IMG/VR virus record: IMGVR_UViG_3300044825_001821 | Coordinates: 96,001-160,000 of that record | From: a virus | Reading direction: 5' to 3' (one strand) | Length of the DNA stretch: 64,000 nucleotides | In this document: piece after piece, positions 3,105-20,549 of the stretch | Numbering within the stretch: position 1 is the stretch's first letter | Layout: the number at the start of each line of letters is the position of its first letter | Translations under genes and position numbers: made by a program | The notes under the pieces: model-generated | Seen by the model: the letters and a program-made list of their open reading frames with translations, nothing else | The model's database searches: none | Told to the model about the DNA's origin: nothing

Positions 3105-3344
3105 ATGGGATACGTGAAGATACAAGATCGTGATCATTTGTATCGTGATATAAACAGTGGTGCTATATTAAATACAAACAAAGCGGAGTTTGAACAATAT
3201 TATGCCGACCGAGAACTTGACATGCGAAAATTGCAGGAGAGACAGGCATTGGAAAACAAAGTAAATAAATTAGAAGAAGATATTGGTCAAATAAAAAATC
3301 TTCTTCAAGAACTAGTACAAATGAGAAACTCAAATGGCAATTAA
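3105..3344 (+). CDS. Conserved small phage protein with C-terminal coiled coil
   Basis: 79 aa ORF with RBS (aaggt). LYRDINSGAILNTN motif; heptad-like C-terminus. Confidence 0.7.
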   Translation: MGYVKIQDRDHLYRDINSGAILNTNKAEFEQYYADRELDMRKLQERQALENKVNKLEEDIGQIKNLLQELVQMRNSNGN

Positions 3345-4239
3345 TCAACTATCAACAGGAAACACATTTCAAGAGTGGGTGACAACCACTAGCTTGTTGG
3401 TTACTACCGCAAATAGCTTGACTGATGGTATAAACGGACAACCATTTATTGCCAACACTGCAATTTGGGTTCAGGGTGCAAACGCTTCATTTAACGTTCG
3501 AACTCTTGCTAACATTAATGTTCTTCAAGCGAACACTGCAAACATCTCTAATATCTCACTATCCAGTGGTAATATTAGTGGCAATGGTAGCATAACGTTT
3601 GGTCAAAATCTGACAGTAACATATGCAAACATTGTACAAAACATTGCAAGTGCAAACGTTACTTCAAATCTTTCGGTTGGCGGTGATGCTTTCATATATG
3701 GTAATTTGACTATCAGTGGAAATGTAACTTTAGATTCTATTGGCTTTGATGATCTGCAAGTCAATGGTTCTGCAAATATCACGAACAGTTTATCTGTCTT
3801 TGGTAACTCTGCTTTTACAAATGCCATCTCTGCAACGCATTTAGTTTTATCAACTTCGTTCACTGGTGCACCAAACACAGCAATTTATGCTTACATTACA
3901 GAGGTGCGTACCATTGCGATTGGTGCTGGATTGTATGCCAACGGTGCTTTCATTCATGGAAACTCTGCACACAGACATGCAAACGCAGGGTTCATTCATG
4001 CTAATGCATCCTTCATTCATGCAAACGCAGGATTCATACATGCCAATGCTGCATTCTTGCAGGCTAACACACCCAGTTTTACTGCTAACTCCGCTGCTTT
4101 GTATGCCAATGGTGCATTCCTGCAAGCCAATACACCTAGTCACACTGCTAACTCCGCTGCTTTGTATGCCAATGGAGCCTTTGTGGCGGCGAATGTGGCA
4201 CAAGATCAGTCCGTGGCGTTTTCAATAGCACTGGGATAA
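3334..4239 (+). CDS. Fibre-like virion protein with HANAxF repeats, ends in SIALG
   Basis: N-terminal NTFQEWVTTT motif, beta-rich middle, ANAGF/ANGAF repeats. Confidence 0.7.
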   Translation: MAINQLSTGNTFQEWVTTTSLLVTTANSLTDGINGQPFIANTAIWVQGANASFNVRTLANINVLQANTANISNISLSSGNISGNGSITFGQNLTVTYANIVQNIASANVTSNLSVGGDAFIYGNLTISGNVTLDSIGFDDLQVNGSANITNSLSVFGNSAFTNAISATHLVLSTSFTGAPNTAIYAYITEVRTIAIGAGLYANGAFIHGNSAHRHANAGFIHANASFIHANAGFIHANAAFLQANTPSFTANSAALYANGAFLQANTPSHTANSAALYANGAFVAANVAQDQSVAFSIALG

Positions 4240-4262
4240 ATAAATAAAAAACAGAGGATTTA

Positions 4263-4598
4263 ATGGCTAATAACTTTAAAAATAACGTTTTGAAAGCGGT
4301 GGGTGGAACAGCACAAAATGCTTACGCTGCTGCCGCTGGTGTGCAGGCTACTGTCATCGGCATGACAATTTCAAATCTTATTTCTACTCCAATATCGGCA
4401 AATGTATTTTTGACTTGTGCAGGCGCCGCTGCTCCGAACGTATATCTAATCAGAGATGCAACGATTGCACCTGGTGGTGCTTTAGTTCCTATTGGCGGAG
4501 ATCAAAAACTAGTATTGGAAGCTGGCGACAAGATTGAAGTGAACACTTCCGTTGCTTCTTCTGCTGACGTTATCGTGTCAGTTCTGGAGATTACCTAA
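4263..4598 (+). CDS. ~115 aa beta-rich virion protein (putative fibre adaptor, paralog A)
   Basis: RBS gagga. Shares its pattern (..I..GG......LEAGD...EI*) with 5258 and 8271. Confidence 0.7.
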   Translation: MANNFKNNVLKAVGGTAQNAYAAAAGVQATVIGMTISNLISTPISANVFLTCAGAAAPNVYLIRDATIAPGGALVPIGGDQKLVLEAGDKIEVNTSVASSADVIVSVLEIT

Positions 4599-5242
4599 TG
4601 GCATACATCGGCAACACTCCAGATTTACCTGGCAATTTTGTTCTACTAACGGAAAAATTTTCTGGCACTGGAGCCTGCACACAATTTACGCTGGCTAGAA
4701 ATATAAGTGATGCAAACGTTGTTGTCGTTGTTGTGAATGGTATTGTTCAAACGCCATCTTATTCTTTTAGTGTTACAAATGGATTACTAACCTTCACTGA
4801 AGCACCTTCAGCGGATTATGCTGACAATATTACAGTTACACATCTAGCTTCTGGTATTATCACGTACAATAACATTAATGCTGGACAATTATTACCCGGC
4901 TCTGTAACTGAAACTGCTTTAGCCACAGGTGCGGTAACAGAAACTAAATTGGCCAATTTTGTTATCAAAGCAAATAAAATAGGTGTAAATCAAATCACTG
5001 GTAACTTAATTGCAGCAAATCAAATCACTGGCAATCAAATTGCACAAAATCAAATCACCGGTAACTTAATTGCGGTAAATCAAATCACTGGCAATCAAAT
5101 TGCACAAAATCAAATCACCGGTAACTTAATTGCGGTAAATCAAATCACTGGTAATCTGATAGCAAACAACGCAATCAGTGGAAACAATATTGTATCACCA
5201 CCAGACATCTTCGATGACGCTTTTCTATTTGGCGGAATGTAA
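4598..5242 (+). CDS. MAYIGN-type fibre stem protein with NQITGNxIA decapeptide repeats
   Basis: Translationally coupled (TAATG). N-terminal beta domain FSGTG..FTL..VNGIVQTP; tandem 30-bp repeats. Confidence 0.75.
   Translation: MAYIGNTPDLPGNFVLLTEKFSGTGACTQFTLARNISDANVVVVVVNGIVQTPSYSFSVTNGLLTFTEAPSADYADNITVTHLASGIITYNNINAGQLLPGSVTETALATGAVTETKLANFVIKANKIGVNQITGNLIAANQITGNQIAQNQITGNLIAVNQITGNQIAQNQITGNLIAVNQITGNLIANNAISGNNIVSPPDIFDDAFLFGGM
4988..5193 (+). repeat. Coding tandem repeat, 30-bp unit (aatcaaatcacYggYaaYYWaattgc...) x~6 with an exact 60-bp higher-order duplication
   Basis: Read directly. 5018-5077 equals 5078-5137. A near-identical array lies at 20354-20500. Confidence 0.9.
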
Positions 5243-5257
5243 AAAAGGAAAAATTAA

Positions 5258-5596
5258 ATGGCAAGAAATTATACAATCTTAGGACAAAGAAATCCATCAG
5301 CAAACGTGTTGACTACACTTTACACTGTGCCGGCGTTAAATTCTGCAATTTTGTCATCAATCACAATTGCCAACTTAGATGAAGCTGCTGCAAATGGTGG
5401 GGCGTTTAGAATCTCAGTGAACACATCAAGTGCTGCTGTTTCAAATGCTAGTTATATTGCATATGGTGTTAATGTACCAGGTCGTGATACAGTTACATTA
5501 ACATTGGGTGTAACATTAAATGCTGGATCAATCGTATCAGTTAATGCTAACAGTTCATTACTTGCTTTTTCTGCATTTGGTACAGAAATTTATTAA
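5258..5596 (+). CDS. ~115 aa beta-rich virion protein (putative fibre adaptor, paralog B)
   Basis: RBS aagga. TLYTVP...SSITIAN...YIAYG...TL..G......FGTEIY pattern. Confidence 0.7.
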   Translation: MARNYTILGQRNPSANVLTTLYTVPALNSAILSSITIANLDEAAANGGAFRISVNTSSAAVSNASYIAYGVNVPGRDTVTLTLGVTLNAGSIVSVNANSSLLAFSAFGTEIY

Positions 5597-5607
5597 TGGT
5601 ATTTTGA

Positions 5608-7308
5608 ATGAGTCAACGTAGACTTCAAATAAATCCTCTTTCTACTAAGAAAGCGGCACACTCTATCAGAGTTTTACTTTCTTTAAGTAGAATGTCTGTA
5701 CCACGTGTTGGAGGCAGAGCGAATGCCGTTGTTTCTATTTTTAATTCCTCAAGTAATTGGACTGCTCCTTCTGGTGTTTTAGTAATTCAATATGTAATTA
5801 TTGCTGGTGGCGGTGGCGGTAATTATGGTGGTGGAGGAGCTGGAGGATTTAGAACTGCTACCGGCCTTTCTGTAACACCAGGAACACAATACACTATTTC
5901 TGTTGGTGGCGGTGGAGGTGGGGCTACAAAAGGAACAAACAGTGGATTCTTTATTACATCTTCTGGAGCCGGTGGAACTTGGGCAACTGGTGGTGGAGAA
6001 GGTGGCGCTAACGCTCCCGGTGGTGCGGGTGGTGCTGGTGGATCTGGTGGAGGTGGTGCCTTTAGTGGTTATGGCGGTCCATATGGAGGTGGAGCCGGCA
6101 ATCAAGGGGGATATTCACCATCTGAAGGAAACAATGGTGGAAATGGTGGGGGCTATCCGGGTGGTACAAACGTAGGCGGTGGCGGTGGCGGTGGTGCTGG
6201 TGGCACAGGATTTAATGGAATGAGACCAGCAGTGCCTTGGGCAGGTAATGGTGGCATTGGAATATATTCTTCTATAACAGGCTCAAATGTAGGTTATGCT
6301 GGTGGTGGGGGTGGATATACATGGGCACCCACTTTAGGTGTTGGTGGTTATGGTGGAAATGGTCAAACAGATTATGGTGGCGCAAATGGCGCTATATCAC
6401 ATCCAACTTTACCTGTTGCTGCAAGCACTCCACCTGCAAATAAAGGTGGTGGTGGTGGTGGTGGCGACACTGGAGCAACGGCACTATCTTCTGGCGGTTC
6501 TGGTGTGGTTATCCTACGTTATGAAATTACTCAAAGGGTTGTATATACGTCAGCATCTACGTTTACAGTTCCTACTGGTGTGACATCAATTGACTATTTA
6601 ATTGTTGCTGGTGGAGGAGGGGCAGGAAGTGGTGCTGGTGGAGCTGGTGGTTTTAGAACTGGAGTAGGATTACCTGTAACACCAGGAACATCATATTCTA
6701 TTGCTGTGGGTGGAGGTGGTGGTGCTTCCTCTTCTGGCTCAAATAGTGGATTTTTCATCACCCCTTCCGGAACTGGTGGAACTTGGGCAACTGGTGGTGG
6801 TAGAGGTGGATTTAATGCGCCAGGTAATGCCGGACAACCTGGAGGTTCTGGTGGCGGTGGCGCTTGTGATGGGTTTGGTGGTCCTAGAGCTGGTGGTTCC
6901 GGAAACGCTGGTGGTTACACGCCATCAGAAGGAAATAATGGCGGCGCTGGTAATTTCTTCAGTCCAGCGGGTACGGGCTCTGGTGGCGGAGGTGGTGCAG
7001 GTAGCGTTGGATTGGCCGCCAGTACGCCTGGTACCGCTTTTGGTGGTAATGGTGGAATAGGAATATTCTCATCAATCTCTGGTGCTAATGTTGGTTATGC
7101 TGGTGGCGGTGGTGGATTAGTTACACCAAGTCACCCTGCTAATTTCGGTGTTGCTCATCCACAATTCGGTGGTGGTAACGGCGGATTTCTTTCCGGCACA
7201 CCCGGAGCAAGTGGCACTGCAAACAGAGGTGGTGGTGCTGGTGGAGGTGATCCTGCTGCGGGTTCTGGCGGATCGGGGATTGTAATTATAACTTATGATA
7301 TACCTTAG
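5608..7308 (+). CDS. Glycine-rich adhesin/fibre-tip-like protein with two tandem Gly-rich domains
   Basis: Two copies of xxPxGVxxIxYxIxAGGGG...GGAGGFRT...YAGGGGG...GGSGxVI. Confidence 0.75.
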   Translation: MSQRRLQINPLSTKKAAHSIRVLLSLSRMSVPRVGGRANAVVSIFNSSSNWTAPSGVLVIQYVIIAGGGGGNYGGGGAGGFRTATGLSVTPGTQYTISVGGGGGGATKGTNSGFFITSSGAGGTWATGGGEGGANAPGGAGGAGGSGGGGAFSGYGGPYGGGAGNQGGYSPSEGNNGGNGGGYPGGTNVGGGGGGGAGGTGFNGMRPAVPWAGNGGIGIYSSITGSNVGYAGGGGGYTWAPTLGVGGYGGNGQTDYGGANGAISHPTLPVAASTPPANKGGGGGGGDTGATALSSGGSGVVILRYEITQRVVYTSASTFTVPTGVTSIDYLIVAGGGGAGSGAGGAGGFRTGVGLPVTPGTSYSIAVGGGGGASSSGSNSGFFITPSGTGGTWATGGGRGGFNAPGNAGQPGGSGGGGACDGFGGPRAGGSGNAGGYTPSEGNNGGAGNFFSPAGTGSGGGGGAGSVGLAASTPGTAFGGNGGIGIFSSISGANVGYAGGGGGLVTPSHPANFGVAHPQFGGGNGGFLSGTPGASGTANRGGGAGGGDPAAGSGGSGIVIITYDIP

Positions 7309-7324
7309 AGGTGAATTGTTGTAG

Positions 7325-7332
7325 TATAAATA
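7325..7332 (+). promoter_or_regulatory. T4-type late promoter TATAAATA
   Basis: Exact gp55 consensus, intergenic, upstream of 7354. Confidence 0.8.
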
Positions 7333-7353
7333 TTTTTATTTAAAGGTGATTGA

Positions 7354-7773
7354 ATGAATAACGAAGATATTAGCTATGCACAGTATTTGGTAGGCAATAA
7401 CAACAAACTTGTATGTGGTATTGACACTGCAATTAAAGCACTCAGACCACACGCTCGTTATGACATGTCTGCTTCTGGTGGGCATTTCGTTTTCACTCGT
7501 TGGGAAGATGAGACAGATTCAAAGCCCCCAACGAAAGATGAAATTTTTGCAGAACTAGAATATCAGAATAAGTTTGTTGACTATTGGCAACACTTTATTG
7601 ATCGTGCTACACACTATCCTGATATTGTAGTTTTAATTAATAGTTTATGGGAAGGTATTGATTCTGGTGCTATACCAGGTAAAGAGACTAATTTTTATAA
7701 ACTAATTAAAGAAGTTAATGATGAGTTTCCAAGACCAGAAGGCGATCCACCAGTAAGACCGACACACGAATAA
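7354..7773 (+). CDS. Putative tail-fibre assembly/chaperone-like protein
   Basis: AIKALRP...W....PPT..EI..E...R...YP pattern; follows a fibre gene. Function is inferred. Confidence 0.55.
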   Translation: MNNEDISYAQYLVGNNNKLVCGIDTAIKALRPHARYDMSASGGHFVFTRWEDETDSKPPTKDEIFAELEYQNKFVDYWQHFIDRATHYPDIVVLINSLWEGIDSGAIPGKETNFYKLIKEVNDEFPRPEGDPPVRPTHE

Positions 7774-7784
7774 TAGGAAAATAG

Positions 7785-8267
7785 ATGGCATACATCGGTA
7801 ATACAGTCACATCGGTTAGATTTCTTTCTGATATTTTTAGTGGCACAGGCTCACAAACTACTTTTGTTTTAACACGTGCTCCTTTTTCAAATGAATCGAT
7901 TGCTGTTTTTATTTCTGGAAGTTATCAAAAACCAGGTATTGATTATACTACCGATGGTTTAAATCTGAATTTTACTTCGGCTCCAGCATCTGGCACAAAT
8001 AATATTTCTGTGCTTCATTTGGGCAATGGTTATATGGCCACTCAGGTTCCCTCTGATAGGTCTGTAACTACGATTAAAATCGCAGAAGGAGCGATCACCG
8101 GTAATTTGATGACAATTAATAGTATACGTGGTAACAATATTGTAGCGGGTACAATCACCGGTAACTTAGTCGCATTAAATTCTATTTCATCGAATAATTT
8201 TTCGTCAGAAGCAAACACAAAAATTTTCAGTTCGGGCATTATAAGTTCGATCATATTCGGAGGTTAA
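7785..8267 (+). CDS. Second MAYIGN-type fibre stem protein, ends in IIFGG
   Basis: Paralog of 4598 (MAYIGNT, FSGTG..TFVL, ITGN repeats). Confidence 0.75.
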   Translation: MAYIGNTVTSVRFLSDIFSGTGSQTTFVLTRAPFSNESIAVFISGSYQKPGIDYTTDGLNLNFTSAPASGTNNISVLHLGNGYMATQVPSDRSVTTIKIAEGAITGNLMTINSIRGNNIVAGTITGNLVALNSISSNNFSSEANTKIFSSGIISSIIFGG

Positions 8268-8270
8268 TAA

Positions 8271-8624
8271 ATGGCAGCGCCAAACATTGTTAGTGTAACA
8301 GATATTAGAGGTAAAAGTAACGTATCGAATGTATCCAGTGGAGGTTCTCCTATTGTGGGTAATGCCAGTGGTAGTAATAAAGTTTTCAAAGTAAATGCTT
8401 TAATGGTTTCAAATATAGACTCCGCTAATAGCATATTAATCAACGTAAACTTTGTTCGTGCATCGGCCAATTACTCTATTGCACGAAATATGACTGTTCC
8501 GTATGGAGCAACTATTGAAATCATTAGTAAATCAATATATTTGGAAGAAGGTGATAGTATACATCTACAGTCTAGTGTAAATGCTACTGCTCAAAGTGTT
8601 TGTAGCTACGAGGAGATAAGTTAA
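8271..8624 (+). CDS. ~115 aa beta-rich virion protein (putative fibre adaptor, paralog C)
   Basis: MAAPNIV...KVNALMVSNID...IYLEEGDSI...SYEEIS. Confidence 0.7.
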   Translation: MAAPNIVSVTDIRGKSNVSNVSSGGSPIVGNASGSNKVFKVNALMVSNIDSANSILINVNFVRASANYSIARNMTVPYGATIEIISKSIYLEEGDSIHLQSSVNATAQSVCSYEEIS

Positions 8625-9547: not shown

Positions 9548-9549
9548 TG

Positions 9550-9557
9550 TATAAATA
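9550..9557 (+). promoter_or_regulatory. T4-type late promoter TATAAATA
   Basis: Exact consensus, intergenic, upstream of 9591. Confidence 0.8.
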
Positions 9558-9590
9558 CATAGTAATTTTTAACACAAAGGGAGTTTTTAG

Positions 9591-9980
9591 ATGGCACATT
9601 TTGCACAACTTGATGAAAATAATGTAGTAACTCAAGTCATTGTTGTGTCCAACAATGAATTACTTGACGCTAACGGTCAAGAAAGTGAGGAGTTAGGCAT
9701 TGCTTTCTGCCAAAGATTGTTTGGTGGTAATTGGAAACAAACATCATACAATCATAATATGAGAAAGCGTTATGCAGGAATTGGATACTCATACAACGCA
9801 GAACTTGATGCATTTGTTCCTCCTAAACCATATGCTTCATGGGTGTTAAATAACACAGAAGCAAATTGGGAAGCACCTGTGCCATTGCCTTCAGATGCAG
9901 GTCAAGGTGAGCCTCCTAAAAATTATATTTGGAATGAAGAAACAACGTCTTGGGATTTATCAGAAACAACAGGACTATAA
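9591..9980 (+). CDS. Conserved phage protein (MAHFAQLD family), probable fibre-associated/chaperone
   Basis: RBS ggag. WKQTSYN...RKRYAGIGYSY...DAF.PPKPY.SW motif; follows a Gly-rich gene. Confidence 0.7.
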   Translation: MAHFAQLDENNVVTQVIVVSNNELLDANGQESEELGIAFCQRLFGGNWKQTSYNHNMRKRYAGIGYSYNAELDAFVPPKPYASWVLNNTEANWEAPVPLPSDAGQGEPPKNYIWNEETTSWDLSETTGL

Positions 9981-9996
9981 AGCATCATCAATAAAC

Positions 9997-10024
9997 AAAC
10001 CCCACTTCGGTGGGGTTTTTTATT
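9997..10024 (+). terminator. Rho-independent terminator
   Basis: aaaccccac-TTCG-gtggggttt plus T tract (cUUCGg loop). Confidence 0.9.
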
Positions 10025-10039
10025 AGGCATTCACGATTG

Positions 10040-10047
10040 ACTAAATA
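10040..10047 (+). promoter_or_regulatory. Late promoter variant ACTAAATA
   Basis: Follows the terminator and precedes the 10069 operon. The same octamer occurs at 16415 and 25881. Confidence 0.6.
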
Positions 10048-10068
10048 CACGATTAGAAGGAGACAATC

Positions 10069-10404: not shown

Positions 10405-10407
10405 GTT

Positions 10408-10635
10408 ATGCCAGAATTAGGTAAAGTTACGGTTTTTCAACCGAATAGAACTACGGTTGTATCGTCAAATTATAGACCTCAACCAAACATTTCTTTATCA
10501 GATATTAATAACATTTCTACAGAAGGTGTACAAGATGGTTATTCTTTAGTTTTTAACTCTGCAAATAATCGTTTTGAGATGAATATTGCTACACTTTCTC
10601 TTGCAAATACGACACTTAGTGGCGGAACCTTTTAA
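10408..10635 (+). CDS. Small virion protein ending in SGGTF
   Basis: LSDINNI...DGYSLVFNSANNRF fibre-type repeat. Confidence 0.6.
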   Translation: MPELGKVTVFQPNRTTVVSSNYRPQPNISLSDINNISTEGVQDGYSLVFNSANNRFEMNIATLSLANTTLSGGTF

Positions 10636-10643
10636 GATTTAAA

Positions 10644-13600
10644 ATGGCAAATATTTCCCTACAATTAAAACATTCTCTAGCCACTAATACACCGCCTTCA
10701 TTAAATGTTGGTGAACCTGCTTATTCATATAGTAGCAATACATTATTCATTGGAAATCCTACGGGCGATGGCGCTATTGCTATTGGTGGTTATGATGATC
10801 ATACTCGTTTAATATCTTCATATGCAACGCTAAACTTGGCATACGATCATGCCAATGCTGCATATATTCGTGCGAATAATTCTTTTAATGCAAATGGCGG
10901 TGGTACGATAGCAGGCGATCTAACTGTTCAAGGTAACTTGAATATTGTTGGTGGAACAATCGGCGCTAATGTACCCATCGTATTAATTGGCGATAATATT
11001 ATTTCGCTGAATGCTTCAATTGGTCAGTCGAATACACCGACGATGAATGCAGGTATTGAAATTGATCGTGGTGCTCAGGCAAATGTTTATATACTTTGGA
11101 ATGAAGTTGATAATAAATGGACTTTCACAAACGATGGAACAAACTATGATAGTTTGGGTGGAGAGTCTGGATCAACATATGCTAATGGTGCATTCGTACA
11201 AGCTAATGCAGCATTCAGTCAAGTTAATGTAACATTTGCACATGCCAACGCCGCTTTCTTAAAGGCCAATACACCAAGTTATGCTGCAAACTCAGCAGGC
11301 TCTTATGCCAATGCTGCATTTATTCAGGCAAATACAAATTTTGTTCAAGTAAATTTAGCGTTCGCACATGCCAATGCCGCATTCTTACAGGCCAATACAC
11401 CTAGCTATGCATCTAATTCTGCTGCATCGTATGCTAATTCAGCTTTTGCTGCGGCAAACTCAGCAGGCTCTTATGCTAACTCTGCTTTTTTAAGAGCCAA
11501 TACACCAAGTTATACTTCAAACGCAGCATCAACATATGCCAATGGCGCATTTATACAAGCTAACGCTGCCTTTGCTCATGCTAATGCTGCTTATGTACAG
11601 GCAAACACACCAAGTCATGTAGCAAACTCTGCTGCTTCTTATGCCAATGCTGCATTTATTGCAGCAAATGCTTCATTTATTCATGTCAATGCTGCATTCT
11701 TAAAAGCCAATACACCAAGTTATACATCTAATTCGGCTGCTTCTTATGCCAATTCTGCTTTCTTGCAGGCGAACACGCCGAGTCATGTGGCAAACTCTGC
11801 GGCATCGTATGCCAATGCTGCATTTTTAAAAGCTAACACACCTAGCTATACATCAAACTCCGCTGCTTCTTATGCCAATGCGGCATTTGCAGTTGCAAAC
11901 TCGGCTGCATCATATGCCAACGCTGCATTTTTACAGGCTAATACGCCAAGCTATACATCGAACTCTGCAAGTGTTTACGCTAACGGTTCGTTTATTCAAG
12001 CTAATGCTGCGTTTTTACAAGCAAACACACCAAGTTACACTGCAAACTCTGCTGCTTCTTATGCCAATGCTGCATTTATTCAAGCTAACGATGCTGTTGC
12101 TTTGTGGACTGGTGCGTATAATCATGCGAATGCATCTTATGTACACGCCAATGCGGCATATCAAAGTCAAAATACAACAGGCACATACGCCAACGCAGCT
12201 TTTGTTCGTGCAAACAATGCGCTAGATGCAAACAATGGTGGTGTGATAACAGGTAGTTTGACGATCACACAGAACCTTACTGTCACTGGAAATGTTTATG
12301 TTTCTGGTAATGCATTCACCGTTAATGCAGGAACATTAACATCAAATGACTCTGTTATTATTTTAGCAGATGGTAATTATTATTCTGATATAAAAGATAT
12401 TGGTTTTGCCGGTCATTATAATGATGGTTCAACCAATGCAAAAACTGGATTACTCAGAGATTCAACAACAAGAGAGTGGTTCTTATTTAAGAATTACACA
12501 CCTGAAATTGGTACAAATAATAATATCAACATTAATGATTCTTCTTTTGAAGTTGATACACTCAGTGCCAATTTAAAATCAACTTATATTTTAATCAAAA
12601 ATGTAGATATTCTACCAAGAACAAATATCATTTTTGATTTAACAAATGCAGCATTTAGACACGCCAACTCTGGATTTGTACATTCAAACGCTGCATTTGT
12701 TCACGCCAATGCCGCATATCAAAGTCAAAATGCAACTGGCAGTTATGCAAACACGGGATATGTACACGCCAACGCAGCATTTATTCATGCAAATTCATCA
12801 TATGAATCTCAGAATGCAACAGGTACTTACGCCAATGCCGCATTCTTGCAAGCAAACACACCTAGTTACACTGCTAATTCGGCAGCATTATATGCCAATG
12901 GTTCGTTTATTCAATCCAATGCGGCGTTTGATCATGCTAATGCAGCATATCAAAGTCAAAATACGACAGGTGTATATGCCAACGCAGCGTTTATACATGC
13001 CAATGCCGCATTTATAAAAACTAATGCATCATTTGATCATGCCAATTCTGCATATCAATCACAAAATGCAACAGGCACTTACGCAAACTCAGCATTTCTA
13101 CATGCCAATGCTGGATTTATACACGCCAATAGTGCTTTTGTTCATGCCAATGCAGCATTTGATCATTCAAATGCTGGATATAATCAAGCCAATACTGGAA
13201 CAACATTAGCACAGGCGGCATTTGATAATTCAAACACCAAGTTTAATTCTACTGGTGGAACGATTTCTGGTAATGTAACAGTTCAAAGTAATCTTACTGT
13301 TCTAGGTAATGTTACATTCGTAGGTAATGTCACATCGGTATTAGTTACTGGTAATAGTGGTCAATTCTTTGGCTACGCATCGAATGGTCACAACGCACTG
13401 TACGCAGGTATTCCAACTGGTTATGATTATCAGCCACAAACAGTTTTCCAAGCATCTGCAAATTATGATGGTTACTCACAGATAAACATTCAGAATATCA
13501 ATACTGGACCTGATGCATCCGGTGACTATGTTGCTACTGCTGATAATGGTAACGAAAATGATACTTACATTGACATGGGCATCGGCAGTAGTCAACATGC

Positions 13601-15986
13601 CGATCCTGACTTTACATTAGTTGGACCAAATGATGGTTACTTGTATACACACGGCAACACCTCAACTGGTGGTGGTGATCTTGTAGTTGGTACATTCTTA
13701 CCACAGAATGATGTAGTATTTGCAGCAGGTGGTATGAATATTGAAAATGAGCAGATGCGTATCATTGGCTCAAGCAACACTATTAATATTCGTGCAAATG
13801 TAGATATAAGTCTTTCAAAAAATGTTTTCTTAGGACCAGTTGTCAATGTTCACATTACTGGTGGAACTAATGATGATTACATCAGAACTGATGGTGCTGG
13901 TAACTTAACATTTGCAAATCTTACTTCTGCAAATGTAATTAAAGTATTATACAATACATCTAATGCTTCATATATTCAAGCCAATGCAGCATTTGATCAT
14001 GCTAACGCCTCATTTGCTGCTGCTAATAATGTATTCCCACAAGTTCAGCCAGCATTCAACACCGCCAATTTAGCATTTGCACATTCCAATGCAGCATATA
14101 ATCGTGCAAATAATTCTGTAGACGCAAACAATGGTGGCACAATTACTGGTGATTTAACAATCACTAAAAATCTGTTTGTTGGTAATGTGTTTGTAGCTGG
14201 ACAGACATTCAGTGTTAATGCTGGTACTTTAGTTTCAAATGATTCTGTCATTATTTTAGCCGAAGGAAATTATTTCTCCGATTTAACTGATATTGGTTTT
14301 GCTGCACATTATAATGATGGTACAAACGCACACTCAGGTCTGATTCGTGACTCTGTAACAAAAGAGTGGTATCTATTCAAAGGATATACACCTGAGATTG
14401 GCACAAACAATAATATTGATATTAATGATGCATCGTTCACAATTGATACTCTGAATGCAAATCTAAACTCAACATATGTTTTAGCAAAAGGTATTGATCT
14501 ATTACCAAGAACAAATATTATTTTTGGTCTTACAAATTCTTCTTTTGCTCATGCAAATGCTGGATTTGATCATGCCAATGCAGCATTTATTTCGGCTAAC
14601 AATGTATTTCCACAGGTTCAGCCAGCGTTCAATACGGCTAACTTAGCATTTGCACACTCAAATGCTGCATTCACACATGCAAATTCATCATATGAATCTC
14701 AGAATGCAACTGGCAGTTATGCTAACTCTGCATTTGCACACGCCAACGCAGCATTTATTTCGGCTAACAATGTATTCCCACAAGTTCAGCCAGCATTCAA
14801 TACGGCCAATTTAGCGTTTGCTCATTCAAATTCTTCGTTTGATCATGCCAATGCTGCATTCTTGCAGGCAAACACACCTAGCTACACTGCAAACTCTGCA
14901 AGTGTTTATGCCAATGCTGCATTCTTACAGGCTAACACACCTAGCTACACCGCAAACTCTTCGGCATTGTATGCCAATGCTGCGTTTATACATGCCAATT
15001 CGTCATATGAATCACAGAATGCTACTGGTAGTTATGCCAACAGTGCTTTTGTACATGCCAATGCTGCGTTTAATTCTGCTAACAATGTATTCCCGCAAGT
15101 GCAACCGGCATTTAACACTGCTAATGCTGCATTTGATCATGCGAACGCATCTTACATTCAAGCTAATGCCGCATTCATTCGTGCGAATAATTCATTAGAT
15201 GCAAACAATGGTGGAACAATTACTGCAAATGTTGTAATTAATGCGAATCTACAAGCAGCTAATGTTACAACAAATGCGTACATTCAATTTGCGGATGGCA
15301 CAAGACAGTTTACTGCAAATGCAAATCCAGCAAATGTTTCACTGAAAACATTTACAACAACATCAAATGGCACTACGCCAACGTTTGCATTAGGGTTTAC
15401 TCCTGCTGGTTCGAATGCTGCTTTAGTTGTTTCAATTGGCGGTGTTATACAAACCGATGGTGTTGATTATTCAATACAACCAGGTAATTCATCAATTTCA
15501 TTTGATGGCATCCCACCAGCGGGTGAAATTGTTAGAGTTACATGTTTGGAAAATGTAGTTCTTTTACCAAATCCAAACGTTACTGTATCGGTGTATGAAA
15601 CTACTGCAAATGGAAATGTTAGCACGTTTGCTTTACCGTTCTATCCAATTTCACGTGAAGCCTTAACTGTAACAATTGATGGCATTGTGCAACCAATTTC
15701 AATGTACACGGTTGATACTTCTGCTAACACAGTTACATTGGATGACACACCACTAAACGGTGAGTTGGTTCGTGTTGCAACTTTCTATACGGCAGTGAAT
15801 CCATATGCGGTATTGCCGAACACAGTGACATTTGATGCATTGGCTCCTGGTGTTAGAAGTTCAATTAATACATCATTTGCAGCAGCAAATTCGGCCGGCT
15901 CATATGCCAATTCGGCATTCAATAAAGCAAATACAGCAGCAACAACAGGAAAGGCAATTGCAATGTCGATTGTATTTGGAGGCTAA
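10644..15986 (+). CDS. Long tail fibre-like protein (1780 aa) with extensive Ala/Asn (ANAAF) coiled-coil repeats, ends in AIAMSIVFGG
   Basis: N-terminal LQLKHS..P..L.VGEPAY motif, AGIEIDRG domain, dozens of xANAAF repeats, duplicated internal domain. Confidence 0.8.
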   Translation: MANISLQLKHSLATNTPPSLNVGEPAYSYSSNTLFIGNPTGDGAIAIGGYDDHTRLISSYATLNLAYDHANAAYIRANNSFNANGGGTIAGDLTVQGNLNIVGGTIGANVPIVLIGDNIISLNASIGQSNTPTMNAGIEIDRGAQANVYILWNEVDNKWTFTNDGTNYDSLGGESGSTYANGAFVQANAAFSQVNVTFAHANAAFLKANTPSYAANSAGSYANAAFIQANTNFVQVNLAFAHANAAFLQANTPSYASNSAASYANSAFAAANSAGSYANSAFLRANTPSYTSNAASTYANGAFIQANAAFAHANAAYVQANTPSHVANSAASYANAAFIAANASFIHVNAAFLKANTPSYTSNSAASYANSAFLQANTPSHVANSAASYANAAFLKANTPSYTSNSAASYANAAFAVANSAASYANAAFLQANTPSYTSNSASVYANGSFIQANAAFLQANTPSYTANSAASYANAAFIQANDAVALWTGAYNHANASYVHANAAYQSQNTTGTYANAAFVRANNALDANNGGVITGSLTITQNLTVTGNVYVSGNAFTVNAGTLTSNDSVIILADGNYYSDIKDIGFAGHYNDGSTNAKTGLLRDSTTREWFLFKNYTPEIGTNNNININDSSFEVDTLSANLKSTYILIKNVDILPRTNIIFDLTNAAFRHANSGFVHSNAAFVHANAAYQSQNATGSYANTGYVHANAAFIHANSSYESQNATGTYANAAFLQANTPSYTANSAALYANGSFIQSNAAFDHANAAYQSQNTTGVYANAAFIHANAAFIKTNASFDHANSAYQSQNATGTYANSAFLHANAGFIHANSAFVHANAAFDHSNAGYNQANTGTTLAQAAFDNSNTKFNSTGGTISGNVTVQSNLTVLGNVTFVGNVTSVLVTGNSGQFFGYASNGHNALYAGIPTGYDYQPQTVFQASANYDGYSQINIQNINTGPDASGDYVATADNGNENDTYIDMGIGSSQHADPDFTLVGPNDGYLYTHGNTSTGGGDLVVGTFLPQNDVVFAAGGMNIENEQMRIIGSSNTINIRANVDISLSKNVFLGPVVNVHITGGTNDDYIRTDGAGNLTFANLTSANVIKVLYNTSNASYIQANAAFDHANASFAAANNVFPQVQPAFNTANLAFAHSNAAYNRANNSVDANNGGTITGDLTITKNLFVGNVFVAGQTFSVNAGTLVSNDSVIILAEGNYFSDLTDIGFAAHYNDGTNAHSGLIRDSVTKEWYLFKGYTPEIGTNNNIDINDASFTIDTLNANLNSTYVLAKGIDLLPRTNIIFGLTNSSFAHANAGFDHANAAFISANNVFPQVQPAFNTANLAFAHSNAAFTHANSSYESQNATGSYANSAFAHANAAFISANNVFPQVQPAFNTANLAFAHSNSSFDHANAAFLQANTPSYTANSASVYANAAFLQANTPSYTANSSALYANAAFIHANSSYESQNATGSYANSAFVHANAAFNSANNVFPQVQPAFNTANAAFDHANASYIQANAAFIRANNSLDANNGGTITANVVINANLQAANVTTNAYIQFADGTRQFTANANPANVSLKTFTTTSNGTTPTFALGFTPAGSNAALVVSIGGVIQTDGVDYSIQPGNSSISFDGIPPAGEIVRVTCLENVVLLPNPNVTVSVYETTANGNVSTFALPFYPISREALTVTIDGIVQPISMYTVDTSANTVTLDDTPLNGELVRVATFYTAVNPYAVLPNTVTFDALAPGVRSSINTSFAAANSAGSYANSAFNKANTAATTGKAIAMSIVFGG

Positions 15987-15989
15987 TTC

Positions 15990-16412
15990 ATGACACAGAA
16001 AATTACAAGTGGTAGAATAGCCAACAGTTCTATTACGGTAAACAGCTTCTCCACTAATTTTGGTGGCTATGCATATGACTTCGATGATATTTCTTATATC
16101 ACCGATGGTGTGACGACTATCTTTCCTTTAACATATAACACATCGAATGTTTCTGTATCAAGTCCTTGGAATTTAATTATATCAATTAATGGTCTTTTAC
16201 AGTCCGCTTTTGCAAATACGCAAGAAGTTCTTTGGATGAGTCACGTTAAAAACTCAGCAAAAGGATACACATTAAATGATGATGGTCGTGTTCTTTTTGC
16301 CGATCCGCCTCCAGCGGGTTCTGATGTTATGATTCGACTTGTGCCTGGGACACCAGCACAAAATACCAAGATTTATCCATTCAAAGCAACCGATATCTTC
16401 TTGGGTTACTAA
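15990..16412 (+). CDS. Virion protein (beta domain), ends in DIFLGY
   Basis: DGVTTIFPL...INGLLQ...FADPPPAGS, the same domain type as in the fibre proteins. Confidence 0.65.
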   Translation: MTQKITSGRIANSSITVNSFSTNFGGYAYDFDDISYITDGVTTIFPLTYNTSNVSVSSPWNLIISINGLLQSAFANTQEVLWMSHVKNSAKGYTLNDDGRVLFADPPPAGSDVMIRLVPGTPAQNTKIYPFKATDIFLGY

Positions 16413-16414
16413 TT

Positions 16415-16422
16415 ACTAAATA
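16415..16422 (+). promoter_or_regulatory. Late promoter variant ACTAAATA
   Basis: Intergenic, upstream of 16471. Confidence 0.6.
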
Positions 16423-16470
16423 GTAGAGATTTTAAAAAAATAAACACCTTTCCCATATTTTGGAGTCAAA

Positions 16471-19400
16471 ATGGCTAGAAAAGTAATCGTAGACACATAT
16501 TATTCGTTCACACCTTCGTCAAGAACGATTGTGTTTAATGAGGTGATTCAACGTGAACGTTTTGTTCTGATTACAAACGTCACTACGAATCAGGTAATTT
16601 ACAATTTTTCAGACCCAAATCTGAAATTAACTTCTCATTCGGTATCACAAAACGCAACAAGCGGTTCGGCGACAACCACAATTGTATTGCAATATAATAC
16701 AGCAGCAATGTCATCTACCGACAAACTTCAAGTTGTGATTGATGAATACGCCGAAAAGTTTGAGCCTGATGAACTCTATACTGATCCGGTAAATAAATTC
16801 CGTGTGTCTCAGCCACAGTCGATGATTGATACCGACTTTGAATATTCAACTCAAGCCACAAAATGGGAAACGTTATCTTTAGTAAATAACAGAGCCTTTG
16901 CTTATGCGAACGTAGCGGCAAACTCTGACGTTTCTATTGGTGGTCCAATCAATGTAACATCAATTACTGTAAACTCTAACTCAAGTTTTGTTACAGTATA
17001 TACTGCAAACCCACCAGCTGTAAACACTCCTATTTTTGTGACTGATAGTGCATGGGGTCCCGCTGACGGTACATATGTTGTTGATGCTGTTTTTGGTACA
17101 ACTGCATTTAGATACACAACAAAACAAAGATATCAAGCAACACTAGGCGTAACTGCTGGTTTGAATATTAACATTCCGGGAGTAACACAAGTTGCTAATG
17201 GTTCTATCTTTACACGTTCAAATATTGCTTTATCAAATATTAATTTTACTGGTGCATTTGCAAATGGTATCGTAAGAACAACTCAACCACATGGTATCTC
17301 AATTGGTAATGAGATCATTCTTCAGGGTACAACAGCAGCAACATCAGGTGCGCCTAATGGAGCATTTACTGTAACTGGCGTTTATTCTAATACAGAGTTT
17401 CGTATCGATGCTAATGTAGCACCAGTAAGTTCATCTGGTATTGGTTCTGGTGGTTTTGCTAATCTATTCTCTTCAGGTCGTTCAACTGTAATTCATCGTG
17501 CTTATGATGGTGGTGTTGAGTTTAGCACCGCAGCAGAAGGACATAACAATCAATTGATTCGTCAGACACGCCGTTACTTCCGTTATCAATCTGGTAAGGG
17601 TATTCAAATGTCAACTGGCACTTTGATGAAGCCTTCAATTCGTTTGGATAGTGTGACAAGTTCTGGTGCGGTTGTAACATTAAAAACAAAGGAACCCCAC
17701 TTTGTAGATACAAACACATCAATTACAATTACCGGTTGTAATGAAACTGCATATAACGGAACGTTTAATGTCTTAGAAGTTTTAGACCCATACACTCTTC
17801 GTTATGTTGCTAACAGTACACCTTCTGCAACTCCAGCAACTGGTTTGTATTTCTTGTCAGTTAATAACTGGTATGGTGCATCTAATCGTGTTGGCATGTT
17901 TGATGATCAAAATGGTATTTTCTTTGAGTATGATGGACAACAACTATATGCAGTTCGTCGTTCTTCAACAAGACAATTATCAGGATTCATCAGCGCCAAC
18001 ACTGCCAATACACAAATTGATGGTGTTTCTGTGAATGGTGTAACAACCAAGTTCTCTTCTGAACTTGATGTTGGTGATTACATTGTAATCAAAGGTATGT
18101 CATATCGTGTTATTGAAATTAACTCTGATACCAGACTGCATGTTTCACCAGCATATAGAGGTAACACACAAATTCTACAAGCTGTTGCTGCCAAAACAAT
18201 TGACTTCAAGATTCCACAGTCTCAATGGAATTTAGATCGTTGTGATGGCACAGGTCCTTCAGGATTTAATCTTGATCTTCGTAAGATGCAGATGTTCTAC
18301 CTAGATTACTCTTGGTATGGTGCAGGTTTCGTTCGTTGGGGCTTCAGAGCAACAGATGGTAATATTGTTTATTGTCATAAGATGGTAAACAATAATGTAA
18401 ACTATGAAGCGTACATGCGTTCTGGTAACTTACCAGGCCGCTATGAAACAAATACATTTGCACCTAAAACAAAAGTTCAAGCGACGATTCAATCTGGAGA
18501 CACTTCAATCAATGTGGCTAATGCTTCAGCATTTCCTACTGTTGGAACGCTGTGGCTCACAAATGGCGCAGGTTTAAGTGAGTTTGTAAACTACAACGGT
18601 GTAACTAACAATTCACCTACAGGTTGGACATTTAATAATCTTATTCGTGGACAACAAGGTAATAATATTAACTGTATCATGTCAACATCAAATTCAACAT
18701 TGAATTTGGTTTCTGGACAGGCAACAACAGGAATTCAAATTGGTATGTTTGTACAAAGCGCAAACATTCCACAAGTTGCTCAAGTTGTTAGTATTAATCC
18801 AAACGTTTCAGTACAACTTTCTCAAGCACCTGGTATCTCTGGAACAGGAGTTGTAACATTTATTCCTATGGGTAATGTTGCACAAACGTTTACATATAGT
18901 GCTACTTCACCAACATACGCTGAGTTACATGCGCCTGGATATGCACCACGTATTGCACATTGGGGCACTTCAGTTATTATGGATGGTCGTTATGATGACG
19001 ATAAATCATTTGTGTTTACTCAAGGTATGAGAGGTGGGTTATCTGTGCCTGCTGGTCAACGTATGGCACTACAGAGTTTCCGTGTTTCACCTTCAGTGAA
19101 TAACGGTGTTCCTGGTTCCGCTTTAGGTGATCGTGAAGTTGTCAATCGTATGCAAATGGTTCTTCGACAACTTGATTTGTTATCAGGTGGTACTTTCTTG
19201 ATTGAAGTTGTTCTAAATGGTTCTACAGCAAATGCTGCACCAGTTTGGCAAAACGTTGGCGGTTCAAGTCTTGCTCAGTACGTCAATCATGCTGTAAACA
19301 CAAGAATTGAAGGTGGTGAAGTTATTTACGGCTTCTTCACCAACTCCGCTGGTGGTTCGACTAACTTGACTACAACATCCATGGATCTACCTCTGGTTCG

Positions 19401-19557
19401 TGATCTTGGTAATAGTATTCTTGGTGGAGGTACTAATGATCCACGAAGTGGATTTTATCCAGACGGTCCTGATATTGTGACAATTGTTGCACGTAATGTT
19501 GGTACTGCGGCAGCATCAGTGTTCTCACGACTATCATGGACAGAAGCACAAGCATAA
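16471..19557 (+). CDS. Large virion structural protein (baseplate/fibre-associated, 1028 aa)
   Basis: MARKVI..YSFTPS, LITNVTTNQVIYNFSDP, RQTRRYFRYQSGKG, DYSWYGAG and SWTEAQA motifs typical of T4-like aquatic phages. Confidence 0.7.
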   Translation: MARKVIVDTYYSFTPSSRTIVFNEVIQRERFVLITNVTTNQVIYNFSDPNLKLTSHSVSQNATSGSATTTIVLQYNTAAMSSTDKLQVVIDEYAEKFEPDELYTDPVNKFRVSQPQSMIDTDFEYSTQATKWETLSLVNNRAFAYANVAANSDVSIGGPINVTSITVNSNSSFVTVYTANPPAVNTPIFVTDSAWGPADGTYVVDAVFGTTAFRYTTKQRYQATLGVTAGLNINIPGVTQVANGSIFTRSNIALSNINFTGAFANGIVRTTQPHGISIGNEIILQGTTAATSGAPNGAFTVTGVYSNTEFRIDANVAPVSSSGIGSGGFANLFSSGRSTVIHRAYDGGVEFSTAAEGHNNQLIRQTRRYFRYQSGKGIQMSTGTLMKPSIRLDSVTSSGAVVTLKTKEPHFVDTNTSITITGCNETAYNGTFNVLEVLDPYTLRYVANSTPSATPATGLYFLSVNNWYGASNRVGMFDDQNGIFFEYDGQQLYAVRRSSTRQLSGFISANTANTQIDGVSVNGVTTKFSSELDVGDYIVIKGMSYRVIEINSDTRLHVSPAYRGNTQILQAVAAKTIDFKIPQSQWNLDRCDGTGPSGFNLDLRKMQMFYLDYSWYGAGFVRWGFRATDGNIVYCHKMVNNNVNYEAYMRSGNLPGRYETNTFAPKTKVQATIQSGDTSINVANASAFPTVGTLWLTNGAGLSEFVNYNGVTNNSPTGWTFNNLIRGQQGNNINCIMSTSNSTLNLVSGQATTGIQIGMFVQSANIPQVAQVVSINPNVSVQLSQAPGISGTGVVTFIPMGNVAQTFTYSATSPTYAELHAPGYAPRIAHWGTSVIMDGRYDDDKSFVFTQGMRGGLSVPAGQRMALQSFRVSPSVNNGVPGSALGDREVVNRMQMVLRQLDLLSGGTFLIEVVLNGSTANAAPVWQNVGGSSLAQYVNHAVNTRIEGGEVIYGFFTNSAGGSTNLTTTSMDLPLVRDLGNSILGGGTNDPRSGFYPDGPDIVTIVARNVGTAAASVFSRLSWTEAQA

Positions 19558-20199
19558 ATGCAAACTGTTACTACATTACCAATACTGCAAACTGTCAGTG
19601 ATGTCACACAACACTATATCAGTTTGCAGCCTGCAATATCAGGAAGAACAGCGGCAGAGTACGTCAATCGTAATCTGTCGTTTAATCCCGCTTCAAATAC
19701 ATTAAATATTGCGGTCAATGTAAATTTTTTACCAAATTCAATTTCCGGTTTGGCAATAGCAGACTCAGGAATAATTTCTTCTAAAATTGCGCCTTTAACT
19801 AGATTAATTGAGCAAGCTAAAATTATTCCAGGTCAATTAAGTGGTAACATTAACATCGATGTTTTAGAATCTTCAGTATACTATTTGACGCAATATCCTA
19901 CGGGAGCTTTAACTTTTAATCTTCGTGGTAATACAAATTATACATTAGATAGACTTTTGAATCCTGGACAATCTGTGTCAACAGTTTTTATGATCACACA
20001 GAATGTTACTCAGCAAGTTGCAAACGTTTCTGTTGATGGTAATTTTCAAACAGCAAATATAAGATATGGTTCAAACACCAAACCAACTTCGACCAGTATT
20101 TCTAGAGAAGTCATAGATGTTTATTCTTTTGTTACAATGAAACTTGCAACCAATTCTTATATAATATTACAAACACAGTCATCTTATGGTGTGGGATAA
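19558..20199 (+). CDS. Virion/fibre-associated protein
   Basis: 213 aa ORF abutting 16471 and coupled to 20199. FNLRGN...DVYSFV motif. Confidence 0.6.
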   Translation: MQTVTTLPILQTVSDVTQHYISLQPAISGRTAAEYVNRNLSFNPASNTLNIAVNVNFLPNSISGLAIADSGIISSKIAPLTRLIEQAKIIPGQLSGNINIDVLESSVYYLTQYPTGALTFNLRGNTNYTLDRLLNPGQSVSTVFMITQNVTQQVANVSVDGNFQTANIRYGSNTKPTSTSISREVIDVYSFVTMKLATNSYIILQTQSSYGVG

Positions 20200-20549
20200 T
20201 GATACAGAAAGTTCGTTCGTCTTTAATAGAACCAACAAATATTACAGGCAATCTGATTGCTCAAAATGCCGTTTCTGGTAACAATATTGTTTCTAACGCT
20301 ATTCGTGGAAACAATATTGTGGCAAGCACAATCACTGGTAATTTAATCGCAACAAATCAAATCACTGGCAATCAAATTGCACAAAATCAAATCACCGGTA
20401 ATTTAATTGCGGTAAATCAAATCACTGGTAACTTAATTGCGACAAATCAAATCACTGGCAATCTGATAGCAAACAACGCAATCAGTGGAAACAATATTGT
20501 TTCTCCTCCTGATATTTTTGATGATGCTTTCTTATTTGGTGGAATGTAA
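20199..20549 (+). CDS. Short NQITGN-repeat protein sharing its C-terminus with 4598
   Basis: Identical C-terminal peptide NNIVSPPDIFDDAFLFGGM. Confidence 0.75.
   Translation: MIQKVRSSLIEPTNITGNLIAQNAVSGNNIVSNAIRGNNIVASTITGNLIATNQITGNQIAQNQITGNLIAVNQITGNLIATNQITGNLIANNAISGNNIVSPPDIFDDAFLFGGM
20354..20500 (+). repeat. Second copy of the 30-bp NQITGN coding repeat array
   Basis: Near-identical DNA to 4988-5193. Confidence 0.9.

Follow-up and report, generated by a model that had tools for sequence, protein, structure and literature searches.

Putative peptide-coded jelly-roll joints between tail-fibre segments in a T4-like myovirus and other phages

Introduction

The long tail fibre of phage T4 (gp34-gp35-gp36-gp37) consists of proximal and distal segments joined by separate small proteins, gp35 and gp36; its gene order follows assembly, and the joint lets different halves combine. 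Here we analyze a stretch of viral DNA of 64,000 nucleotides (nt), positions 96,001 to 160,000 of the IMG/VR record IMGVR_UViG_3300044825_001821 (the window), in which a comparable arrangement is found: three small paralogous proteins, termed here adaptors A, B and C, are encoded between fibre genes. The adaptors differ from the T4 joints in several respects. They have no sequence relation to gp35 or gp36 (no match linking them in Pfam, PHROG or NCBIfam, and no PDB sequence match), they are predicted jelly-rolls of ~110 amino acids (aa), several paralogous classes occur per genome, each with its cognate terminal peptides, and their family is also present in podo- and siphoviruses.

As a structural precedent for a peptide that plugs into a small β protein, the T5-like phages offer the best case. 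In phage DT57C, LtfC, a small all-β protein of 140 aa, takes the terminal strands of the trimeric fibre LtfA by β-sheet augmentation, and the lateral fibre is branched, with LtfB attached via LtfA (PMC10713586). Unlike the proposed joints, LtfC forms a dodecameric collar at the tail tip rather than a connection between segments, and the strands that it takes are N-terminal. The adaptor-family profile found nothing at E values up to 1 among all PDB chains, the DT57C entries included. A Gly-rich receptor-binding domain, as in the tips described below, is known from S16 gp38 and Pam3 gp24/gp25 (PMC9608196), and in Pam3, as here, a small candidate chaperone gene comes next; there, however, the adhesin docks directly on the fibre or the baseplate, and neither a separate jelly-roll nor a coded tail peptide is described. 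In the Bacillus ExsF/BxpB jelly-roll trimer (PDB 9h3d, 8d02, 7r5i) a subunit takes the terminal peptide of a trimeric filament. These entries and the Ena pilins (7a02) were among the Foldseek and VIA neighbours of the adaptor model, but the structural match is weak (Z score ~8, template-modelling score 0.33-0.58), there is no sequence relation and the context is the spore, so that the likeness is an analogy only. The arrangements published for the chain-like fibres of A1002 and for phage 7-7-1 are different, and both were rejected.

By analogy, the closest functional kin of the adaptors would be the T4 gp35/gp36 joints and the LtfC attachment of the T5-like phages. Literature searches found no paper describing a peptide-coded jelly-roll joint. 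Fibre building in large aquatic phages is poorly understood, since most genes of this kind are annotated as 'hypothetical'.

Results

Three small proteins lie between fibre genes with recurrent terminal peptides

From position 3334 to 20549 of the window every gene is on the + strand and the majority are fibre-like (Table 1). The original prediction, made from the letters and the open reading frames (ORFs) of the window, had held that three paralogs of ~115 aa each directly follow a fibre-like gene with a short hydrophobic tail. The ORFs and translations bear this out: the proteins, of 111, 112 and 117 aa, have EIT, EIY and EIS as their last residues and share 27-30% pairwise identity. It had also placed a stem protein starting with MAYIGN after adaptor A, one of two such stems, and the translations agree. 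Gly-rich tips had been expected after adaptors B and C, and both were recognized by the Pfam model Gly_rich_2 (PF21722; E 4.9e-25 and 89.3 bits for tip 1, E 3.6e-9 and 37.4 bits for tip 2, against a gathering cut-off of 24.3). Finally, the same tails were said to recur on distant genes with no adjoining adaptor, as is indeed the case for the genes at 10644 (..AIAMSIVFGG) and 20199 (..DDAFLFGGM). The complete record of 172,439 bp encodes exactly three members of the adaptor family, five class tails, two MAYIGN heads and one NGGILG head, and the class-specific tails are confined to five fibre genes among ~1,000 ORFs.

We consider it likely, on the strength of sequence and gene-order comparisons, that the three small proteins are structural joints linking fibre segments, each matched to one class of tail and head peptide. 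In the proposed mechanism the jelly-roll of ~110 residues would sit between two fibre segments. It would take the last 8-10 residues of the proximal segment, which are greasy, alternate between large and small side chains and end in Gly; adaptor A would receive ..A[FL]AIALG, adaptor B ..FL[FL]GGM and adaptor C ..AIAMxIVFG(G). The other side of the adaptor would take the first residues of the distal protein (M[AS]Y[IL]GN for A, M[SA]x[KRN]R.. for B, and ..NGG[IV][IL]G for C). Specificity would come from the pairing of each peptide class with its adaptor class, and any protein with the right tail could therefore carry the distal part of that adaptor. Applied to this phage, either stem could be joined to the anchor at 3334 through A; tip 1 would be carried, through B, by stem 1 and by the neck-proximal fibre at 20199, and tip 2, through C, by stem 2 and by the 1780-aa fibre. 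The tail would probably bind an oligomeric jelly-roll, most likely a trimer, either by inserting a strand or by augmenting a sheet, with the head peptide of the distal protein adding a strand on the opposite side, and the adaptor would stay in the virion. Large hydrophobic residues alternate with small ones in the tails (A-I-A-M-A-I-V-F, A-L-A-F-A-I-A-L), a pattern that fits a β strand with one greasy face and a Gly end. The N-terminal arm of adaptor C may join in the contact, because its first nine residues are the most conserved part of that class. We infer this docking of part to part from the gene pattern, the three-way covariation and the concerted changes at a distance that are described below.

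Homologues of the 3334 product in relatives have just 71-87 aa, yet they retain the ..A[FL]AIALG tail as well as the N-terminal motif. The MSQRRL start of tip 1 is the basic N-terminal motif typical downstream of B adaptors; tip 1 also carries the internal duplication D12/D16, and stem 1 contains 10-residue NQITGNLIA repeats.

Tail, adaptor and head follow a three-part class rule

Family members were located by hidden Markov model (HMM) in 186 IMG/VR contigs around relatives of A, B and C, and the end of the preceding gene and the start of the following gene were read; 182 unique adaptors were counted. Class A adaptors are preceded by a tail ..A[FLY][AS]IALG in 63 of 67 unique cases and followed by the head M[AS]Y[IL]GN in nearly all loci. 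For class B, the upstream tail is ..FDDxFL[FL]GGM or ..LMLSGM in 35/52 unique cases, with M[SA]x[KRN]R.. downstream, and for class C it is ..(K)AIAMAIVFG(G) or ..GSIIFGG in 50/63, with ..NGG[IV][IL]G.. downstream. The exceptions to the tail rule are mostly adaptors that come after a tip gene or another adaptor, or loci at contig ends. Since the distal protein also bears a class-specific N-terminal motif, the fibre code would have three parts. A position between proximal and distal fibre genes was found in ~150 loci. In class C, the last residues of the stem and the first nine residues of the adaptor are invariant columns, at the gene boundary.

On the adaptor tree of 137 labelled members, the tail class changes twice, the minimum for three states, whereas label shuffles give at least 52 changes; this count is descriptive, because relatives share labels. 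The pairing of tail and adaptor holds within genomes that carry several classes, and across unrelated phages with differing fibre bodies. The absence of any correlation between tail and adaptor type had been named at the outset as the result that would speak against the idea; over the 186 viral contigs and 11 cultured phages the opposite was found, with tail type tracking adaptor type at the minimum number of changes. In 14 genomes, a loosely defined greasy tail ending in Gly was present on 16 of the 31 ORFs that precede an adaptor and on 62 of 6,308 others (odds ratio 107, Fisher p 1e-23). Some class-like tails occur without a detectable adaptor.

The bodies attached to these peptides vary widely. 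The upstream proteins range from 63 to > 1,300 aa; on single-linkage clustering most of their fibre bodies merge through repeats, so that no count of independent bodies can be given. Downstream there are 8-18 unrelated groups of bodies per class, among them Gly-rich, Laminin_G_3, large non-Gly and S74-capped fibre proteins, with the class head kept; behind C adaptors, for example, NGG[IV][IL]G is found on tips of the Gly-rich, LamG and other kinds. One adaptor may be followed by a pair of tips that have the motif in common, as in S-SKS1 and in the relatives G017 and G020.

The reading frames at these junctions were also noted. In 44 of 61 unique class-C pairs the stem stop and the adaptor ATG are in-frame, with a gap of 3 or 12 nt (TAA TAA ATG, TAA NNN ATG); same-frame pairs number 12/67 in class A and 23/51 in class B. 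The shared frame of class C is likely to reflect translational coupling or common ancestry. Read-through is unlikely where two stops stand in tandem.

Distant tails change in concert in close relatives

Close relatives that carry adaptor C or lack it were compared. Tails of the FGG type were present in 5/5 relatives with adaptor C and in 0/2 without it (small numbers, in related genomes). In G011, G015 and G020, which have adaptor C, the long fibres end in ..AIAM[AS][LI]VFGG. In G012, which lacks it, the second stem ends in ..FISNTICVVAGNIT (..ICVVAGNIT) and the 1826-aa long fibre in ..FISPTVCVIMGSVT; the two genes, 8 kb apart, have thus switched jointly to one new tail, ..CV[VI][AM]G[NS][IV]T, and the cassette contains three non-Gly proteins with a new common head. 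In G009, also without adaptor C, stem 2 is truncated, neither stem 2 nor the long fibre has a class-C tail of the ..IVFGG type, and one small protein ends in ..TLIFGGSF. In G020 adaptor C follows a tip gene, and the sole FGG tail of the region is that of the long fibre. The G020 homologue of the 20199 gene codes for the diverged tail ..YFLFGLGS, and a B-type adaptor and a Gly-rich tip of its own come next, which shows that the neck-proximal 20199-type protein is a stem for a putative joint of this type.

These relatives bear on another reading of the jelly-roll, as a terminal receptor-binding knob that caps the stem, with the next gene coding for an independent fibre. Covalent C-terminal jelly-roll knobs are common on fibres (e.g. 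the 7-7-1 long fibre), TNF/C1q-type heads are among the structural neighbours of the adaptor, and the family member of DSL-LC04 is annotated as 'putative lectin'. Yet the adaptors are much better conserved than the tips beside them, with 70-90% identity between relatives that have tips of different family and length; a receptor-binding head should show the reverse pattern. Nor would a knob account for the class-specific heads of the downstream proteins or for the fusions, described below, that carry a lectin-type domain on the C-terminal side of the adaptor. We regard the knob as very improbable.

Selection acts on the peptides

Conservation peaks exactly at the gene boundaries, and modular exchange at these borders is evident. 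Both would also be seen if the conserved ends were DNA-level boundary sequences for cassette recombination, with peptides that have no binding role. The codons speak against this. The tails of 4598 and 20199 share 16 identical residues, of which 11 have different codons, all of them synonymous with 0 non-synonymous changes; the 11 codons adjoin a stretch of 13 identical codons. The FLFGGM peptide is therefore under strong purifying selection. Across 21 class-C loci, about half of the identical residues of the tails and of the adaptor N-terminus MAAPNIVSV use different codons, and the orphan tails on distant genes keep the peptide with no neighbouring gene. As judged from these data, selection is on the protein, not on the DNA. 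The recombination-linker reading, which we now find scarcely credible, was rejected because synonymous sites are not conserved.

Natural fusions point to a physical link between adaptor and tip. In P0224 a C-type adaptor is fused to a Laminin_G_3 domain (E 1.3e-15) and the head peptide is absent from the fusion; in S-SKS1 the same type of tip stands alone with an NGGTIG head. P0192 is an adaptor fusion with a CBM-like domain, and P0254 consists of a fibre segment followed by two adaptor domains.

The adaptors form a large family with a predicted jelly-roll fold

All three adaptors belong to PHROG 1276, which is of unknown function (E 1.2e-8 for A, 6.9e-6 for B and 3.4e-4 for C, over profile positions 1-111 of 325). 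The family has no sequence match in Pfam or NCBIfam, and its neighbours in the ESM Atlas are 'hypothetical protein' throughout. An AlphaFold2 (AF2) model built from an alignment of 29 diverse members is a single-domain jelly-roll of nine strands with no helix (mean predicted local distance difference test score, pLDDT, 92.3), and it fits the eight-stranded jelly-roll fold of TNF/C1q-like proteins. Its structural neighbours include the KHP40 trimeric cement protein (Z 10.4), the HFTV1 turret protein (Z 9.5), CD40L (Z 7.8), C1q (Z 7.3), the Ena spore-appendage subunits and nucleoplasmin. Going by the model, the nearest solved structures are oligomer-forming jelly-rolls; these Z values denote a common fold, not family membership.

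A profile search of 1.84 billion representatives yielded 9,160 clusters (50% identity) at E <= 1e-3 and, at the stricter E <= 1e-10, 2,120. Nearly all of the matches stand alone, at 105-130 aa; tandem two-domain proteins make up some of the others, and a few are fusions. For adaptor A, > 1,169 stand-alone homologues and essentially no fused forms were found; among longer relatives there was one weak match, and a later profile search turned up rare fusions. BFVD contains many predicted look-alikes from uncultured phages, S-SCSM1, S-TIM5 and MaMV-DC, several of them named 'virion (structural) protein'.

Tandem joints occur at loci L062 and L078, where the first adaptor ends in ..FGVELT and the second adaptor follows directly. 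Single chains with two jelly-roll domains (~215-240 aa; e.g. P0122, P0126) are common among the best profile matches. The existence of tandem two-domain forms suggests that the oligomeric state may vary between classes.

Putative joints of the same kind occur in cultured phages of three morphotypes

Triads of tail, adaptor and head were found in cultured phages of all three morphotypes, with unrelated hosts. Class A triads are present in Roseobacter phage CRP-13 (..ALALAIALG, adaptor, MPYIGN), Rhizobium phage RHph_I1_18 (..ALALAIALG, adaptor, MGAFIGN), Yersinia phages GN1 and YerA41 (..LSMAIALG, adaptor, MSYLGR) and Cyanophage S-TIM5 (an 81-aa protein with ..ALSIALG, adaptor, and a 1415-aa fibre starting MPHIGN). 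Class C is represented by Pelagibacter podophage HTVC033P (..KAIAMAIVFG, adaptor, the Gly-rich tip MANGGIIGP and then a MAHFAELE gene) and by a triad in the cyanomyovirus Bellamy. Pontimonas siphophage phiPsal1 has a B-like pair (..ALMLMGG, adaptor). S-SKS1 carries a chain of joints: a 928-aa protein ending ..LIIALG, an adaptor and a 1727-aa fibre ending ..IMMGMIF, then a C-type adaptor followed by two Laminin_G_3 tips, both with NGG-type heads. In S-SCSM1 the order is a 1478-aa long fibre ending ..FILALGGN, a member of the adaptor family, and a 711-aa fibre that carries an S74 chaperone domain.

A swap of tail class can be recognized between two of these phages. CRP-13 gp48 and HTVC033P gp66 are homologous over their N-terminal 220 aa (47% identity, E 4e-46); gp48 ends in IALG and gp66 in IVFG, and each tail fits the adjoining adaptor class and the distal gene.

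Synechococcus phage Bellamy carries, between 30 and 47 kb (L192), at least 5 consecutive cassettes of stem, adaptor and Gly-rich tip, with further tail and adaptor classes. The tails of these cassettes are ..VIALGA, ..ASLFT, ..AALFN, ..SMVFG and ..WLYGGG, and several of the adaptors are too diverged for the family HMM at E 0.01. From Bellamy, S-SCSM1 and S-TIM5 it is clear that more than three adaptor classes exist.

A structural joint and an assembly chaperone compared

Fibre chaperone genes commonly sit right after the gene of their client. It has to be considered, then, that the small proteins are class-specific assembly chaperones for the upstream tail or for the next N-terminus, which aid trimerisation and are released by the time of virion maturation. 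A position directly after the client, as in Pam3 gp25, would be as expected, and specificity of chaperone for client would also give the covariation of tail and adaptor. The proteins of the virion provide evidence on both sides. In the study of S-SCSM1, mass spectrometry of CsCl-purified virions identified 45 virion proteins, 13 of them of unknown function; ORF27, a member of the adaptor family, has no homology-based function in the authors' table, yet it is named 'virion protein' in the record, and we infer that this name rests on its detection by mass spectrometry. In YerA41, liquid chromatography-tandem mass spectrometry (LC-MS/MS) of virions identified 63 particle proteins, among them the downstream fibre g042 and the tail-fibre assembly protein; adaptor g041 (104 aa) was not detected, as expected of a chaperone that is released.

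Several observations stand against the chaperone. The adaptor model is a single all-β domain with no helices, and so lacks the helical trimerisation domain of chaperones of the Tfa or Pam3 gp25 type, and no match to chaperone families was found in Pfam, NCBIfam or PHROGs. The tips already have chaperone-like genes of their own downstream: CRP-13 and S-SKS1 encode proteins with Tfa-like C-termini, and the phage of the window, Bellamy and HTVC033P have the MAHFAQLD gene. Covalent fusions of adaptor and tip also exist. A chaperone for the upstream fibre would also leave the class-specific N-terminal motif of unrelated downstream proteins unexplained. The fusions, the separate chaperone-like genes, the all-β fold and the S-SCSM1 name favour a structural joint, and we consider the chaperone unlikely.

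Several points have to be set beside the evidence for the structural joint. i) The IALG protein g040 of YerA41 was, like g041, not detected in the particles by LC-MS/MS. ii) Covariation of adjacent genes is partly inherited synteny; the joint switch in G012, the 20199 homologue of G020 and the swap between CRP-13 and HTVC033P carry more weight as support than the covariation on the tree. iii) The comparison of genomes with and without adaptor C covers 7 related contigs, of which the window genome alone is whole and the others are fragments or at most ~85% complete. iv) No adaptor-family member adjoins the new tail type of G012. v) In RHph_I1_18 a 239-aa MSYIGN protein (143612-144331; L002 6490-7209) ends in ..AVVSVAIFG, and that genome has a single detectable adaptor, a class-A one; the ..AVVSVAIFG tail would either need no adaptor or have a partner too diverged to be detected. 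vi) Stem 2 and adaptor C, which are in the same frame with TAA TAA between them, were folded by AF2 as one read-through chain, with TAA read as Gly and 21 loci in the paired alignment. Confidence was high for the adaptor core but low for the tail and the N-terminal arm (pLDDT 46-59), and no docking was predicted; this fold says little either way and does not count against docking, because it is a monomer with a 2-residue linker.

Taken with these points, the proposed joint is well supported by comparative genomics. A wider proposal, that the adaptors make up a general peptide-coded connector system with at least five classes across myo-, sipho- and podoviruses, giving a branched, combinatorial array of tips in which the tags are kept while the tips are traded, is one on which we judge the arguments to be evenly balanced. 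The finding gives a putative role to a very large unnamed family (~9,160 clusters, with no Pfam or NCBIfam model), so widespread that thousands of phages would have the joint, and a simple sequence rule would predict which fibre piece carries which tip, even for genes 10-15 kb apart. If the rule is true, metagenomic contigs would directly reveal how fibres are built and which host-recognition modules they carry, and the joints would explain the exchange of receptor-binding tips between unrelated phages. If the connectors are general, they would represent a new principle of tail-fibre assembly, and nature would have supplied a plug-and-socket kit with which tips could be exchanged in laboratory phage-host pairs. 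Since several cultured phages carry the putative joint, the idea is already open to test.

Genome setting and neighbouring genes

The fibre region is part of the late structural module of a T4-like aquatic myovirus, which occupies bases 1-24,000 of the window. A DNA-level search of GenBank phages with the fibre region gave no match, and by sequence this is a phage without a close cultured relative. The neck protein has 40-46% identity to those of T4-like phages of Methylophilales, Pelagibacter, Caulobacter and cyanobacteria. The coordinates of the genes are collected in Table 1.

Table 1. Fibre-region and neighbouring genes (positions in the window)
Feature	Position	Strand	Remarks
Proximal fibre/anchor, 301 aa	3334-4239	+	Class-A C-terminal tail ..AFSIALG
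Adaptor A, 111 aa	4263-4598	+	Ends EIT; predicted stand-alone jelly-roll; PHROG 1276
Stem 1, 214 aa	4598-5242	+	MAYIGN start, Ig-like domain, class-B tail ..FDDAFLFGGM
Adaptor B, 112 aa	5258-5596	+	Ends EIY; follows stem 1
Gly-rich tip 1, 566 aa	5608-7308	+	Two Gly_rich_2 domains; N-terminus MSQRRL
Small conserved gene, 139 aa	7354-7773	+	Position after tip 1 kept in relatives
Stem 2, 160 aa	7785-8267	+	MAYIGN start, class-C tail ..ISSIIFGG
Adaptor C, 117 aa	8271-8624	+	Ends EIS; N-terminal arm MAAPNIVSV invariant
Gly-rich tip 2, 307 aa	8624-9547	+	N-terminus with ..FNGGILG, typical after C adaptors
MAHFAQLD.. protein, 129 aa	9591-9980	+	PHROG 7759, function unknown; no family annotation
Long fibre, 1780 aa	10644-15986	+	Ala/Asn heptad repeats; orphan class-C tail ..AIAMSIVFGG
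Virion protein, 1028 aa	16471-19557		44% identity to S-PM2 counterpart
Short repeat fibre, 116 aa	20199-20549	+	Just 5' of gp13-like neck gene; orphan class-B tail ..FDDAFLFGGM
gp13-, gp14- and gp15-like neck and sheath-completion genes	20552-23405		PHROG 211 and others

Each of the two Gly-rich tips is followed by a small gene. The 7354-7773 product matches only PHROGs of unknown function and is a candidate tip chaperone; the MAHFAQLD protein is a second candidate for this role. Genes of the MAHFAQLD type also come after Gly-rich tips in HTVC033P, Bellamy and the relatives, always in that position. The first 19 residues of the protein encoded here, MAHFAQLDENNVVTQVIVV, are identical in Bellamy gene 34 and near-identical in the relatives and in HTVC033P gp63.

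Two small proteins flank the long fibre. The 75-aa protein ahead of it (10408-10635) ends in ..LSGGTF, one form of an end-tag that recurs at C-termini as ..GG[ST]F or ..DGG[ILT]F, and variants of it (..IVGGSF, ..LQGGTF, ..EAGGTF, ..LDGGIF) are present on fibre-region proteins of G009 and G011-G020. This end may be a further docking tag, one with no adjoining jelly-roll adaptor. The 140-aa protein right after the long fibre (15990-16412) has an Ig-like N-domain as in the MAYIGN stems (PHROG 18673), a different head, ..SGRIAN.., and the tail ..ATDIFLGY, which in relatives is ..DIFMGY or ..DIMIGE. The head ..ESGRIA[ND]G is also found on small proteins near the neck genes of G012, G015 and G020.

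Downstream of the neck genes, the gp16-like small terminase gene (23402-23803) is separated from the next large ORF by a Dps/ferritin-like ORF of 144 aa (23808-24242), a position that is kept in the relatives G012 and G015.

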